From IMG/VR virus record IMGVR_UViG_3300045988_005058: a DNA stretch of 5,980 bases; one strand, written 5' to 3'. Under the pieces are notes generated by a model. That model searched no databases. It had not been told where the DNA came from and was given only the letters and a program-made list of their open reading frames with translations. A program made the position numbers and the translations under genes. Of this stretch, positions 2,388 to 5,980 are shown piece after piece (the stretch's first letter is position 1; each line of letters starts with the position of its first letter). The DNA is from a virus.

Positions 2388-2595
2388 TGTGGAAAACTTG
2401 AGTTTTCAACACTTTCAACAGGTTTTCAACAACAAGTTGCACAAAGAAATTCGTCAAAATGACGAACATTCAACAATTCAACAAGTTTTCAAAAAAGTTT
2501 TCAACAGGCAAAAAGACAATAAATAAACGTAGTAACGTTAAAAAAACGAGTTTTCAACACTTTCAACACTACTACTACTACTCCTACAACAAGTT
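2388..2595 (+). repeat. Iteron-like direct repeat array (core TTCAACA, extended GTTTTCAACA) with embedded palindromes
   Basis: Perfect TTCAACA copies start at 2405, 2414, 2425, 2469, 2477, 2500, 2553 and 2562, with a degenerate TTCAAAA at 2488. GTTTTCAACA occurs at 2402, 2422, 2497 and 2550. The exact 21-mer GAGTTTTCAACACTTTCAACA occurs at 2400-2420 and 2548-2568. Inverted near-copies GTGGAAAAC lie at 2340-2348 and 2389-2397. CAACAAGTT occurs at 2430, 2479 and 2587. (ACT)5 lies at 2568-2582. Confidence 0.95.
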
Positions 2596-2655: not shown

Positions 2656-3652
2656 AACAAAAATGCCATGTACAAAACCATTAGTATTTCAGATGGACAC
2701 GAAAAAACCGAAACTGTGGGGAAGTCTGGAGAACCTATCAAAGCAAGGACTACAAACGGACATCATGGACGGAGTCAAAAAAGGAAAATTCGCGTTGTTA
2801 CCATGCGGTAAGTGCGAGTATTGCCGCAAACAGACGGCAGACCAATGGGCAACAAGAATAGAACTAGAAGCCAAAGAGTGGGACGATGTAATTTTTCTAA
2901 CACTGACATATGACAATGATCACATACCTTACGGCGAAATCATCAAAGGCTACAGAAGCATTCAAAGTCAGACAGTAAGCAAGCGAGACGTGCAACTATT
3001 TCTAAAAAGGCTGCGAAAAGCGTACAAGAAACCAATAAAATACTTCCTAGCGGCCGAATACGGCGACAAAACAAAAAGACCACACTATCATGCAATAGTA
3101 TTCGGACTAAAGCCACCGGATGCGCAATGGTATAAGAACCAAAAGGGAAACAGCTATTTTAAAAGCGAATGGTTACAAAAAATCTGGGGCAAGGGCATGA
3201 TAGACTTTTCACCAGCACAACCGGGAAGTTTTGCATACGTAGCGCAGTACGTCAACAAAAAAGCCATAGGTGCAGAGCAAGCGGCAAAATACTGGATGGA
3301 AGGTCGAGAACCTGAGTTTAGAATCATGTCGAAAGGCATCGGCGAAAAGTATCTAAAAGAACACAAAGATGAAATCTTAAAAACAGATAGCATTATCTGT
3401 GCAGGAGGACGCGAGAAAAGGCCGCCACGCTATTTTGATAAGATTCTAGATAAGGATACCAGCCAAGACACAGAAAGCTATTTTAAAGCACATTCTGACG
3501 AGCTAAGAGAGGTTAGAGCCAGACGCAGACGCAGCGCAATACAAAGTTTAATCAATCTCGAACAGAGCACAAGCGTGGATTATGAAACCTATCTCAACAT
3601 TCAGAAAGAAAAGGACAAGCTAAAGCAAAAATGGCGTGAACCAAAAGAATGA
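2648..3652 (+). CDS. VP4: Rolling-circle replication initiator VP4 (phiX gpA-like HUH endonuclease)
   Basis: Motifs: PCGKCEYCR, FLTLTY (2894-2911), HUH as PHYHAIVFG (HYH at 3083-3091), and the double-tyrosine motif YVAQYVNKK (3236-3262), close to phiX gpA YVAKYVNK. The start is ambiguous. GTG 2648 lies 3 nt after AAGGAAG. ATG 2663 gives MPCTKP..., the usual MxCxxP N-terminus, but has no nearby SD. Confidence 0.9.
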   Translation: MPVTKMPCTKPLVFQMDTKKPKLWGSLENLSKQGLQTDIMDGVKKGKFALLPCGKCEYCRKQTADQWATRIELEAKEWDDVIFLTLTYDNDHIPYGEIIKGYRSIQSQTVSKRDVQLFLKRLRKAYKKPIKYFLAAEYGDKTKRPHYHAIVFGLKPPDAQWYKNQKGNSYFKSEWLQKIWGKGMIDFSPAQPGSFAYVAQYVNKKAIGAEQAAKYWMEGREPEFRIMSKGIGEKYLKEHKDEILKTDSIICAGGREKRPPRYFDKILDKDTSQDTESYFKAHSDELREVRARRRRSAIQSLINLEQSTSVDYETYLNIQKEKDKLKQKWREPKE

Positions 3653-3786
3653 CGCGCACAGCGCTAAAAAGGAAAATTTATTAAGCCGAGTTCCGCCTTG
3701 GCTCCACACGGCAGAGCGCTAAAGCGCTTTCAAACCAGAGGAGCAAAACCAGCTACTAATATATCAATTAAAATTTCAAAAAAAAC

Positions 3787-3815
3787 TTGACTTTTTTCAA
3801 AAAATATGATAGAAT
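3787..3815 (+). promoter_or_regulatory. Strong sigma70-type promoter with extended -10
   Basis: -35 TTGACT (3787-3792), a 17-nt spacer, TG at 3807-3808 and -10 TAGAAT (3810-3815). A perfect TATAAT follows at 3815-3820. An A/T-rich UP-like tract lies at 3759-3786. SD AAGGAAGG (3827-3834) and ATG 3843 are downstream. Confidence 0.7.
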
Positions 3816-3842
3816 ATAATCACAGAAAGGAAGGTGCTCAAA

Positions 3843-4040
3843 ATGACACACACCTACGAACTTAGAAGTTGGAACGACGACGGCAGCATGACAACAGTAC
3901 TTAAACTTACAGCAGAACCCAAATATGCAAAAGAAAGAGCAAAGGACTACGCGAACCGGCACCCGGGTCTCTACTCATTAGAAAAAGTAGAAAAGGTAGC
4001 AATGTACCTTACAGAAAAGGAGATTGACGAAAATGCTTAA
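3843..4040 (+). CDS. Hypothetical 65-aa soluble protein, first gene after the promoter
   Basis: ATG 3843 lies 8 nt after AAGGAAGG; the track start at 3834 is a GTG inside the SD. No motif recognised and no hydrophobic segment. Its end overlaps the next gene (ATGCTTAA). Confidence 0.6.
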   Translation: MTHTYELRSWNDDGSMTTVLKLTAEPKYAKERAKDYANRHPGLYSLEKVEKVAMYLTEKEIDENA

Positions 4041-4052
4041 ATGCTATATAAT
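4024..4052 (+). promoter_or_regulatory. Second near-consensus sigma70-like promoter motif overlapping the peptidase start
   Basis: TTGACG (4024-4029), a 17-nt spacer, TATAAT (4047-4052). It is inside coding sequence, so chance is possible. Confidence 0.3.
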
Positions 4053-4425
4053 GGACACAGACGGAAACGTAAAGCTTGGAAGACACTTCAAAGTAAAAGA
4101 ATTTAGCTGCCGTGACGGCAGTCAAGTGGTATTCATAGACGACTACTTATATTCCGTTCTGGACATCCTCCGACATAAACTAGGAAAGCCGGTAATCATA
4201 ACCAGCGGATACAGAACACCAGAATGGAACGCAAAATGCGGTGGAGCAAAATACAGCTATCACATGCGCGGTATGGCAGCAGATATCCGGGTAAATGGAA
4301 TAAGCGCAAAAGAGCTTGCCAACAAACTGGATGAAATCGTACCGGATGGATGCGGCATTATCGTATACAAAAACTGGGTGCACTTTGATGTGCGAACCGG
4401 GAAAAAATACAGAAAGGGGATGTAA
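4033..4425 (+). CDS. Zinc D,D- or L,D-peptidase of the M15 (Peptidase_M15_3 / VanY-like) family, putative peptidoglycan hydrolase
   Basis: HxxxxxxD zinc motif in SYHMRGMAADI (H 4261-4263, D 4282-4284), second His in WVHFDV (H 4381-4383), and the upstream FKVKEFSCRDG element typical of this family. Start ATG 4033 overlaps the previous stop; ATG 4051 is an in-frame alternative. The track start 4024 is a TTG abutting the SD. Confidence 0.8.
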   Translation: MLKCYIMDTDGNVKLGRHFKVKEFSCRDGSQVVFIDDYLYSVLDILRHKLGKPVIITSGYRTPEWNAKCGGAKYSYHMRGMAADIRVNGISAKELANKLDEIVPDGCGIIVYKNWVHFDVRTGKKYRKGM

Positions 4426-4491
4426 CAATGGAACATACCAGCATCAACTGATAATCGAATAACACCATAACCTGGAAAGAAGGATTAGCAA

Positions 4492-4976: not shown

Positions 4977-5225
4977 ATGAAACTTAAATTCTACTCATTC
5001 CACGATGCATTGACCAACGGCTACTCACAGCCATTTCTGCAGAACAACAGGGCACAGGCAGTGCGAACGGCACGCTGGAAAGCCAACGAAAGCAAGCCAA
5101 GTGAAGTCGAAGATATTTCGCTCGTAGAACTGGGCGAATTCGACACCGAAACAGGCTACATGAGCGAAGCAATGCCTGAACACATCGCACGGCTCATCGA
5201 CCTGAAGGAGACGGCCAAATGCTAA
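4977..5225 (+). CDS. Small nonstructural protein, VP5-like (phiX C analogue in gokushoviruses)
   Basis: ATG 4977 lies 6 nt after AAAGGGG. The pattern MKxxFYSxxD...PF...N...A.R........ps...D..L.ELGEFDTETG matches my recollection of the conserved small microvirus protein usually labelled VP5. Not verified. Confidence 0.45.
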   Translation: MKLKFYSFHDALTNGYSQPFLQNNRAQAVRTARWKANESKPSEVEDISLVELGEFDTETGYMSEAMPEHIARLIDLKETAKC

Positions 5226-5644
5226 ATCCTAATACACTGGTAAGGTACTACGGTCTACCGACCGAAAGAGTGACAAACAATCCGGGCAGCAAAACCGCAC
5301 CAACGTGGAAAGCAGTAAAGCGACCGAACGGCACTACCGACTACATCCAGCAGCCGGACGAAGACACATACGAAAAAATCCAGCGAGCCGGCGAGGGCTA
5401 CGATCTTGCAAGCGCAATCGCACGGCTGGAAGCGGGAGACACCAGCATCAAGGCAAAAAGCATGGTATATACCGAGGGCACCGACCTTGAAAATCTGCCC
5501 AAGGACATCATGACGATGCACGAAAAGGCCAAAGATGCAGCCGAAACGCTGGAACAGCTGAAACAGATGCAGCAGACCGAACAGCCGAAGCCGAAAGAGG
5601 AAGAAAAAAAAGAGGAGGTGAAAGAAAACGAACCGAAACAGTGA
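5219..5644 (+). CDS. VP3: Putative internal scaffolding protein, VP3-like
   Basis: ATG 5219 lies 8 nt after AAGGAG and overlaps the VP5-like stop. 141 aa, sited immediately upstream of VP1. The central segment DTYEKIQ...DLASAIARLEAGDTS...Y...TDLENLP resembles gokushovirus VP3 as I recall it. It has an acidic/lysine-rich tail. Confidence 0.5.
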   Translation: MLNPNTLVRYYGLPTERVTNNPGSKTAPTWKAVKRPNGTTDYIQQPDEDTYEKIQRAGEGYDLASAIARLEAGDTSIKAKSMVYTEGTDLENLPKDIMTMHEKAKDAAETLEQLKQMQQTEQPKPKEEEKKEEVKENEPKQ

Positions 5645-5980
5645 AAACCATTTCGCGCAAGTGCCGCGAATGGAACGACCGCGAAGCAAATTTGACAGAA
5701 GTCACCAGCTGTTGACGACCATCAACGAAGGTGACCTCGTACCCATCTACTGTGATGAAGTGTTACCGGGCGATACCGCAAAAATACGACTAAACGGACT
5801 TGTCCGAATGAGCACTCCCATCTATCCTATCATGGATAACTGCTACATGGATATCTATTTCTTCTTTGTTCCATGCCGTCTGCTGTGGGAACACTGGGAG
5901 AACATGTTCGGCGAAAACGACACCAACTACTGGGCAGAAAAAACCGAATATTCCACACCGAAAACCAAAATTGAAGGAAA
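5628..5980 (+). CDS. VP1: Major capsid protein VP1, N-terminal part (non-canonical start; frame disrupted at 5880)
   Basis: Frame 3 reads (ACG)NRNSENHFAQVPRMERPRSKFDRSHQLLTTINEGDLVPIYCDEVLPGDTAKIRL...MDNCYMDIYFFFVPCR up to 5879. This is the hallmark VP1 N-terminus (HxFAQVP, RSxFDRSH, EVLPGDT, FFFVPxR). The conserved continuation LLWEHWENMFGEN is in the +1 frame from 5881. The first canonical in-frame starts are GTG 5661 and ATG 5670. Confidence 0.8.
5903..5980 (+). repeat. Terminal redundancy (copy of 1-79), marking circular closure
   Basis: 78 nt are identical to 1-79 except for one A-run: A5 at 5939-5943 versus A6 at 37-42. Confidence 0.95.

Follow-up and report, generated by a model that had tools for sequence, protein, structure and literature searches.

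A DnaA-box and DnaA-trio array in gokushovirus genomes resembles the unwinding region of bacterial chromosomal origins

Organization of the repeat array

The IMG/VR virus record IMGVR_UViG_3300045988_005058 (5,980 nucleotides (nt); this whole stretch is referred to as the window) holds the complete, circular genome of a gokushovirus, 5901 nt long; bases 1-79 recur as 5902-5980, and every gene is encoded on the + strand. The genes for VP2 and for the HUH-type replication initiator VP4 (rep) are separated by the longest noncoding stretch of the genome (2327-2662), which contains an array of direct repeats. Here we describe this array and its resemblance to the regions at which bacterial chromosomal origins (oriC) are unwound by the initiator protein DnaA. 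A first-pass annotation of the sequence had called the stretch the only long noncoding gap and had placed its end at 2647. It is the longest, but not the only one, since positions 3653-3842 are also noncoding, and it extends to the ATG of rep at 2663, the GTG at 2648 being in frame.

The heptamer TTCAACA occurs in nine exact copies in the window, eight of which are located on the + strand within 2405-2568 (starts at 2405, 2414, 2425, 2469, 2477, 2500, 2553 and 2562). Shuffled sequences contained 0.96 copies on average and four at most, and none of the 200 shuffles reached nine. The claim of the first-pass annotation that eight same-orientation copies are present and did not arise by chance thus holds, as do its coordinates. 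The same is true of the further repeats that it had listed: one degenerate copy (TTCAAAA at 2488), four extended copies (GTTTTCAACA at 2402, 2422, 2497 and 2550), an exact 21-mer recurring 148 nt apart (GAGTTTTCAACACTTTCAACA at 2400-2420 and 2548-2568), and two inverted near-copies (GTGGAAAAC at 2340-2348 and 2389-2397). Its two palindromes, a motif present three times and an AT-rich block were also found, and the run that it gave as (ACT)5 is here read as (CTA)4-CTC-CTA. Read as 9-mers, the repeats are nine co-oriented DnaA-box-like sequences, nTTTCMACA, within approximately 180 nt. The element that they form with the adjoining sequences has the following parts:

2388-2609, + strand: whole oriC-like element ("E"), comprising the DnaA-box cluster, DnaA-trios and AT-rich tract
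2388-2411, no strand assigned: palindrome TGTGGAAAAC-TT/GA-GTTTTCAACA with 11-nt arms, 91% complementary
2403-2431, + strand: distal box cluster, TTTTCAACA (2403), CTTTCAACA (2412) and TTTTCAACA (2423), spacing 9 and 11 nt
2450-2466, no strand assigned: central palindrome TTCGTCA-AAA-TGACGAA, between the box clusters
2467-2506, + strand: middle box cluster, CATTCAACA (2467), AATTCAACA (2475), TTTTCAAAA (2486, degenerate) and TTTTCAACA (2498), spacing 8, 11 and 12 nt
2551-2568, + strand: abutting tandem trio-proximal boxes TTTTCAACA and CTTTCAACA, counterparts of Bacillus subtilis DnaA-box 6 and box 7
2569-2586, - strand: DnaA-trio run 3'-GAT GAT GAT GAT GAG GAT-5' (+ strand CTA CTA CTA CTA CTC CTA)
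2587-2595, + strand: motif CAACAAGTT, partly dyad-symmetric (AAC-nn-GTT), with further copies at 2430 and 2479
2594-2606, no strand assigned: AT-rich block TTAATATATAAAG, a candidate duplex-unwinding tract

The palindrome at 2388-2411 pairs an inverted box (the reverse complement of TTTTCCACA, one mismatch to the consensus) with box 1. In single-stranded form, it is predicted to fold back on itself, so that a DnaA box lies within the stem of the resulting hairpin; the minimum-energy and the centroid fold agree on this. It is present in some relatives only (the window clade, L006, L010, L011 and L015). The stretch TTTCAACAGGTTTTC(A/C)ACA of the distal cluster is near-invariant among relatives. 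The degenerate slot at 2486 is occupied by TTTTCCACA or by the perfect box TTATCCACA in relatives, and the proximal tandem slot reads TTTTCCACA in 10 of 29 non-redundant relatives. The central palindrome is replaced by GCACAAA-TGGT-TTTGTGC at the same position in L009, L012, L013 and L016, so that the position is kept and the sequence is swapped (TTCGTCAAAATGACGAA in the window versus GCACAAATGGTTTTGTGC in these four). The preservation of a hairpin or dyad while its sequence changes suggests a structural or dimer-binding role.

Correspondence to the bacterial unwinding system

The basal unwinding system of B. subtilis oriC, which has been defined experimentally and reconstituted on a scaffold, consists of DnaA-boxes 6 and 7, DnaA-trios and an AT-rich region (Richardson 2016; Pelliciari 2021, PMC8287927). 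From the two boxes, DnaA extends as an ATP-dependent filament over the complementary 3'-GAT-5' trios and thereby pulls the strands apart (PMC8287927). The top strand of the basal unwinding scaffold reads 5'-TTATCCACA AATCCACA GGCC CTA CTA TTA CTT CTA CTA-3' (PMC8287927 supplement), and its trio stretch, CTACTATTACTTCTACTA, is positioned 3' of GGCC (PMC8287927). Positions 2551-2606 of the window read TTTTCAACA-CTTTCAACA-(CTA)4CTC CTA-CAACAAGTT-AATATATAAAG, which has the order, strand and polarity of the B. subtilis scaffold: abutting co-oriented boxes 5' of a CTA-type run, with distal boxes upstream and a candidate AT-rich tract further 3'. The first-pass annotation had left the (ACT)5 run and the AT-rich block uninterpreted; together with the last two boxes, they give the layout of DnaA-boxes, DnaA-trios and candidate unwinding element.

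The box TTTTCAACA at 2551 has two mismatches to TTATCCACA and is located 9 bp from the trios, and the published search rule permits 0-16 bp between the box and the first trio. In the tandem at 2551-2568 the upstream box is nearer to the consensus than the downstream CTTTCAACA, which has three mismatches. Relatives carry TTTTCCACA, with one mismatch, 4 bp from the trios. A DnaA-trio run is defined by at least three consecutive 3'-NAN-5' triplets, preferably GAT; the - strand of the window at 2569-2586 has six (four GAT, GAG and GAT), and among 126 relatives there are three in a row in 63 and at least five in the other 63. In most relatives, a C-rich spacer of 3-4 nt (TGCC, CCCC, TCCC or GTCC) precedes the trios, comparable to the GGCC of B. 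subtilis, and L011, with TTTTCCACA GTCC CTACTACTACTACTAC, is a textbook case of the layout. The 30 nt after the trios have a mean AT content of 69% in the 126 relatives, versus 54% for the genome, and the AT block, short in the window, is longer in relatives. The fourth trio (2578-2583 in the window and the homologous positions) is the only one that varies (CTC, CTA, CGA, CGT, CGG or CTG), the flanking trios being invariant. In about half of the genomes it has a middle G, contrary to the NAN rule.

The published loose search rule was set aside as evidence, since it is satisfied approximately seven times per random genome. In a strict scan, which required a box with at most two mismatches within 16 nt of at least three trios and at least three CTA among the first four, the window genome gave a single match, at 2551-2586. 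Eleven of 17 relatives matched likewise, and none of 300 Markov-simulated sequences did. A curated origin database lists TTATCAACA and TTTTCAACA as species-specific DnaA boxes of some bacteria. The element is located in a microvirus between VP2 and rep and not beside dnaA or dnaN; it may work like an oriC, or derive from one, but is not one.

Conservation of the element and its independence from Rep

The approximately 200-nt core of the element (2404-2609) was found by blastn of GenBank phages in 40 gokushovirus records, at 70-98% identity, from human, pig, mink, raccoon and monkey faeces. Beyond the closest relatives, megablast aligned only short shared modules of the remaining genome, which is otherwise too diverged. 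A pattern scan of IMG/VR identified at least 120 contigs with the element, nearly all of them 5.3-6.2 kb long. Classification covered 131 genomes, 128 of which fall into three layouts:

Layout 1, 95 genomes: element antisense to the genes, directly downstream of rep
Layout 2, that of the window, 27 genomes: element sense, directly upstream of rep
Layout 3, 6 genomes: element sense, downstream of rep

The element is thus positioned downstream of rep in 101 genomes and upstream in 27, and it is antisense in 95 and sense in 33. All 27 genomes with the window layout encode a window-type Rep (80-98% identity). Between the two Rep types, the Rep proteins are 32-40% and the VP1 proteins 41-48% identical, and the DNA of the element is 70-83% identical. 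Genomes L003 and L004 have nearly identical flanks, between which the element is cleanly inverted. The first-pass annotation had interpreted the repeats as Rep iterons beside a hairpin, as in circular Rep-encoding single-stranded (CRESS) DNA viruses and rolling-circle-replicating (RCR) plasmids. Repeats bound by Rep should co-vary with it and keep one orientation. The array does neither, and it also occurs in bacterial chromosomes and a siphovirus; the interpretation as Rep iterons is therefore not supported.

Across 18 aligned elements, a set later enlarged to 95, the slots of the repeats read nTTTC(A/C)ACA; at position 6, A accounts for 76% and C for 24%. Relatives have TTTTCCACA at individual slots, and the perfect DnaA box TTATCCACA is present in four GenBank genomes. 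The occurrence of these two boxes at the same slots favours recruitment or titration of host DnaA, which the first-pass annotation had given as an alternative. The most conserved part of the element is its 3' end, made of the abutting boxes, the C-rich spacer, CTA CTA CTA CNN CTA, CAACAAGTT and AT-rich DNA. Column conservation among 29 non-redundant copies is 0.91 for boxes, 0.87 for trios, 0.94 for CAACAAGTT, 0.67 for spacers and 0.64 for the AT block, in which composition is kept rather than sequence. The 260 nt upstream of the trios contain 8.1 +/- 1.6 forward and 0.3 reverse boxes (126 genomes), compared to a background of 0.06. The motif CAACAAGTT is present in 105 of 126 microvirus elements.

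Coding strands have approximately 37% A and 17% T in both orientations of the element, and the AT skew of the relatives is 0.33-0.37 genome-wide and approximately 0.50 at VP1 four-fold sites, whatever the orientation. The constancy of the skew argues weakly that the packaged strand does not flip with the element. The coding strand of the window itself has a strong A-over-T bias (A 37%, T 17%, AT skew +0.37). Alternating purine-pyrimidine GC tracts (GCGCGCACGCGCGC...), which are Z-DNA-prone, flank the element in many genomes, often at the AT-rich end (L003:1120-1180, L004:1070-1115, L009:3705-3745, also L007 and L011).

Similarity to chromosomal origins

A pattern derived from the phage elements was scanned against one genome per bacterial species and matched at least 120 loci. 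Among the matches listed, 90 of 120 encode the DnaA motifs GxGKTHL and DH[TS]TV just upstream on the same strand, which is the classic position of an origin between dnaA and dnaN, and 10 more are too short upstream to judge. Most of the listed matches use TCCACA-type boxes (Streptomyces, cyanobacteria and many Clostridia). The few that use TTCAACA include origins of Oscillospiraceae (L159, with 10 copies, L180 and L140), Ruminococcus (L173, 8 copies) and Mesoaciditoga (L215, 9 copies). The dnaA-dnaN intergenic regions that resemble the element hold 5-10 TTCAACA copies, and Pfam searches placed dnaA and dnaN on the two sides of the L180 and L159 loci.

In the origins L159, L180 and L173, which belong to uncultured Oscillospiraceae and Ruminococcus genomes, the GG-separated box pair of the element recurs, as do the tandem pair and spacings of 8 and 11 nt; a C-rich spacer leads to (CTA)5, and an AT tract comes next. 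They also have the same box flavour, TTTTCAACA mixed with TTTTCCACA, and the same cluster spacing. The 8- and 11-nt spacing of the middle cluster and the string TTTTCAACAggTTTTCAACA of the distal cluster both recur in L159 and L180. Unlike the element, the three chromosomal regions are longer, contain inverted boxes and lack CAACAAGTT. A profile built from 95 elements matches the origins collinearly over approximately 180 of 206 positions, with E-values of 3.5e-17 for L159, 1.9e-14 for L180 and 8.5e-13 for L173, which overstate homology because repeat arrays can align without common descent. Loci with only the search pattern reached 18-24 bits in the same search. The profile without the part used for searching still matches L159 (5.6e-8), L173, L215 and L180 immediately upstream of the trios. 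Since repeats inflate the profile scores, and since these origins are the best among the matches listed only, we regard the comparison as strong evidence for a shared design of the element and the origins, as moderate evidence for capture from a host origin, and as only a pointer to Oscillospiraceae or Ruminococcus as possible hosts. A blastn search of 72,556 plasmids gave no match to the element.

Related modules in other viruses

The turkey-gut microvirus phiCA82 (L258, NC_015785) carries a box-trio module with three perfect boxes directly after rep, at 3680-3860, in the order TGTGGATAA, two TTATCCACA, TTATCAACA, TTTTTCACA-G-TTTCAACA, (CTA)6 and AT-rich DNA. The database record annotates gene p4 (3674-3889) across the box cluster, (CTA)6 and the AT-rich tract; this coding sequence is probably spurious. 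Contigs L122 and L126 represent a distant 4.7-kb lineage, with VP1 35% and Rep 28% identical to the references. Their module, also after rep (L122:4130-4290), is composed of four perfect TTATCCACA, ATTTCCACA-TTTCCACA, ATGC, (CTA)5 CTT and an AT-rich tract. In L122, the module has a TTGACT-17-TATAAT promoter on its 3' side, and both contigs are T-rich, opposite to the A-over-T bias of the relatives of the window. The recurrence of the module with differing box flavours across lineages is expected if its partner is a host protein.

Similar modules of box array, spacer, CTA-trios and AT-rich DNA were seen in five non-microvirus contigs of 23-43 kb (L070, L081, L090, L059 and L124), with at least ten TTTTCAAC-type boxes each in L070 and L090. 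Tape-measure, Dit and tail genes are present in L070, a siphovirus, whose module is on the minus strand at 1790-1985. No rep gene was seen in 8.7 kb of the siphovirus contig carrying the array. Borrowed origin modules may be widespread in phages. The motif CAACAAGTT was not found in the chromosomal oriC regions, phiCA82, L122 or the siphovirus element.

Genome context

The genes of the window and two further features of the noncoding stretch upstream of rep are as follows:

5670 across the junction to 1415, + strand: VP1 major capsid protein (Pfam Phage_F, 3e-112)
1454-2326, + strand: VP2
2333-2360, + strand: terminator-like hairpin, GGGGGG...CCCCCC then a T run (inverted-repeat listing and direct reading)
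2621-2655, + strand: rep-leader hairpin with a perfect 11-bp stem, ACCGGCACAAG / CTTGTGCCGGT, belonging to the rep module and outside the oriC-like element
2663-3652, + strand: rep (VP4), HUH-type replication initiator (Pfam REP_ORF2-G2P, E = 2.2e-20)
4033-4425, + strand: M15 peptidase
4977-5225, + strand: VP5
5219-5644, + strand: VP3-like scaffold protein

The terminator-like hairpin at 2333-2360, which was not among the matches of a simple terminator scan, closes the VP2 transcript and marks the 5' limit of the noncoding region. The rep-leader hairpin adjoins rep in L005 and L006, in which the oriC-like element is more than 200 nt further off. Its loop and 3' arm hold the ribosome-binding-site-like AAGGAAG and the in-frame GTG at 2648. 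Moving with this rep type independently of the array, the hairpin may control the translation of rep or be a Rep-specific site.

A coding role of two small open reading frames in the gap, 2389-2526 and 2459-2635, was rejected, as the homologous stretch of L003 has early stops; a Pfam search of the two gave no match. The sole Rfam match was a sub-threshold U4 (20 bits, cut-off 46, E = 0.25), which we take as chance. A sigma-70 consensus scan of 2327-2662 found no promoter site, and the TATAAT-like words in the AT tract were dismissed as a promoter, having no usable -35 element.

Shine-Dalgarno-like sequences precede most genes of the window genome, and a strong sigma-70-type promoter, TTGACT-17-TAGAAT with an upstream TG, is located at 3787-3815 in the noncoding region 3653-3842. 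These features indicate a host with Firmicutes-type expression signals. The noncoding region around the promoter also contains conserved blocks, AGCCGAGTTCCGC... and GCGCTAAAGCGC. Together with the M15 peptidase gene (3653-3842 and 4024-4431), it has 80-88% DNA identity with genomes that are far more diverged in capsid and rep, a sign of modular recombination. The array directly adjoins this second noncoding region in L003, so that the layout of the window looks as if rep had been swapped in between.

The window contains two sequences within one mismatch of ACTTGATA, the phiX174/pC194-type nick core, where 3.6 are expected, and neither is in the array. In the other Rep clade, a hairpin follows the rep stop codon (L003:1020-1060, L004:1025-1065 and L009:3645-3690), with stems that vary and a loop, TATCAAGTAA, that is kept. 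The complement of the loop contains ACTTGATA, which resembles the nick-site core of phiX174 and pC194. In that clade, the true nick site of Rep may lie here.

Function of the element

The array has the architecture and polarity of a bacterial unwinding region, is selectively conserved irrespective of Rep type and orientation, and is collinear with oriC regions. We consider it likely that it is a phage-borne copy or mimic of the origin-unwinding region of a bacterial chromosome and that it recruits host DnaA.

Several points weigh against this interpretation. It is built wholly on sequence, and we know of no reason for a rolling-circle phage to need DnaA. The classical gokushoviruses Chp2, phiMH2K and SpV4 do not have the module; hence, the family does not require it. 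The box call leans on the use of TTTTCAACA in chromosomal origins, since its position 6, which is invariable even in the relaxed consensus TTWTNCACA, deviates from the Escherichia coli consensus. Loose-rule matches occur at the chance frequency given above, which leaves the strict version as the only informative one, and the profile scores are inflated. The element also differs from the B. subtilis system: it resides in a 5.9-kb single-stranded DNA phage and not between dnaA and dnaN, and has nTTTCAACA boxes rather than TTATCCACA. The window does not have the GC-rich spacer of approximately 4 bp (0 bp, with an extra CTA in its place). The AT block, of only about 13 nt, is shorter than chromosomal examples, and it is separated from the trios by the CAACAAG of the invariant CAACAAGTT, which chromosomal origins do not contain.

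The main rival is a purely titrating or regulatory role, in which replicative forms of the phage genome would tie up DnaA, block host initiation or time the expression of a neighbouring gene. A cluster of nine boxes in 180 nt is dense and would be multicopy. In B. subtilis, initiation is disturbed by DnaA-box clusters carried on multicopy plasmids; in E. coli, DnaA is sequestered by the datA locus. T5-like phages keep eight ordered DnaA boxes with a proposed non-replicative role, to stop DNA injection (preprint, bioRxiv 10.1101/866236). However, a sponge needs boxes only, and the near-invariant trios in the right polarity and register and the AT-richness would be left unexplained, while regulation fits poorly with a neighbouring gene that varies between layouts and with the negative promoter scan. 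We regard such an exclusive role as unlikely. Still less probable is that the repeats are iterons of an origin nicked by the HUH Rep in or near the array, for example at CAACAAGTT/AATATA, with DnaA perhaps helping to melt the DNA. The element adjoins rep in all 128 genomes, has its AT-rich end towards rep in 122 of them, and contains the invariant, phage-specific CAACAAGTT, a candidate Rep nick site that bears a loose resemblance to the phiX174 origin core CAACTTG/ATATTAATAAC. DnaA filaments would also leave the + strand of the window single-stranded, as a substrate for an HUH enzyme. Against a Rep origin stand the absence of co-variation with Rep, the antisense orientation of the element in 95 of 128 genomes with the skew unchanged and the packaged strand probably not flipping, and the box-trio modules without CAACAAGTT in phiCA82, L122 and the siphovirus. 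Moreover, no hairpin with a conserved loop was found within the array. A combination is possible, in which opening by DnaA exposes the displaced + strand, including CAACAAGTT, to the HUH Rep; it conflicts with the antisense orientation in most genomes and with the unchanged coding-strand skew.

The first-pass annotation had also suggested a minus-strand origin. The hairpin at 2388-2411 on the incoming strand would present a duplex DnaA box and seed a DnaA-dependent primosome, comparable to the 'A-site' hairpins of plasmids R6K and pBR322. The predicted box-in-stem hairpin agrees with this suggestion, and the region folds better than its shuffles (z = -4.35). Nevertheless, the fold signal comes from three short hairpins and is alike on the other strand (z = -4.17), whereas a single-strand origin would be expected to have extensive orientation-specific structure and should not tolerate both orientations. 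The box-bearing hairpin is not present in most relatives, and the most conserved parts, the tandem boxes and trios, are predicted to be unpaired. A complementary-strand origin thus appears very improbable. Least credible of all is that the element is passenger DNA, a fragment of a host origin gained by recombination and spread among gokushoviruses without a function. The genomes are mosaic, as the sharing of the peptidase module and second noncoding region between divergent genomes indicates, and the element resembles host oriC; but it is kept in more than 120 diverged genomes of approximately 5.9 kb, its boxes and trios are conserved preferentially, and distinct lineages have distinct versions at the same place.

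Because inversion and relocation of the element are tolerated and it folds alike on both strands, it most likely acts on the double-stranded replicative form. Based on the recruitment of host DnaA, which we favour, a mechanism can be proposed. After conversion of the phage genome to the replicative form, host DnaA-ATP would fill the boxes. The tandem pair at 2551-2568 would nucleate a DnaA filament, which would grow onto the 3'-GAT-5' trios of the - strand from 2586 back to 2569. Stretching of the - strand by the filament would open the duplex across 2569-2606, and the helicase loader, helicase and primase of the host may engage the opened DNA. Replication or priming of the replicative form by the host initiation machinery, bidirectional and independent of Rep, would thereby become possible. 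Tying up of DnaA on the many phage copies would be a built-in side effect.

We speculate further, and much more tentatively, that the replicative form may be a DnaA-dependent minichromosome. It would replicate in theta mode from the captured host origin, in step with the host cell cycle, and be maintained in a non-integrated carrier state in Oscillospiraceae- or Ruminococcaceae-type hosts, with Rep serving only to make single strands for packaging.

Relation to known systems and implications

Plasmid and phage-plasmid replicons, such as P1 oriR, pSC101 and F, use DnaA boxes beside their own initiator. The origins of phiX174, CRESS viruses and RCR plasmids are similar to the element in that it adjoins an HUH rep gene and has direct repeats near AT-rich DNA, and its CAAC...AT-rich motif is loosely reminiscent of the phiX174 origin core. 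Unlike these origins, the element has repeats that do not co-vary with Rep and are also chromosomal, a free orientation and no nick-site hairpin. The T5-like phages, the closest precedent found among phages, are another case of a mobile element that keeps ordered DnaA boxes, including the TTATCAACA variant, and exploits the host initiator (bioRxiv 10.1101/866236). The plasmid and T5-type systems differ from the element in pairing few boxes with their own initiator or serving non-replicative ends, and no DnaA-trio run in origin polarity has been reported in them. Full-text literature searches retrieved no paper tying Microviridae or gokushoviruses to DnaA boxes and no report of DnaA-trios in phage genomes. 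The unwinding module is known; what appears to be new is that small rolling-circle phages carry it as a conserved, mobile cassette.

Textbooks present microviruses as rolling-circle phages that rely on their own Rep and on host elongation factors, and a conserved DnaA-box/trio module in origin polarity would add the host initiator to the picture of their replication. Other phages, too, seem to borrow origins, judging by the similar modules in several larger viral contigs. As a compact and naturally selected unwinding module, the element could be used to test which origin features are sufficient outside a chromosome. The replication and persistence of gokushoviruses in the gut are poorly understood, and the element offers a concrete and testable mechanism. 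For gokushoviruses of the human and animal gut, the hosts are largely unknown, and the resemblance of the element to particular chromosomal origins offers a sequence-based link from phage to host, here with Oscillospiraceae or Ruminococcus as the pointer. If the replicative form is indeed a minichromosome, the flavour of the DnaA boxes would report the hosts of uncultivated microviruses and of module-bearing tailed phages.

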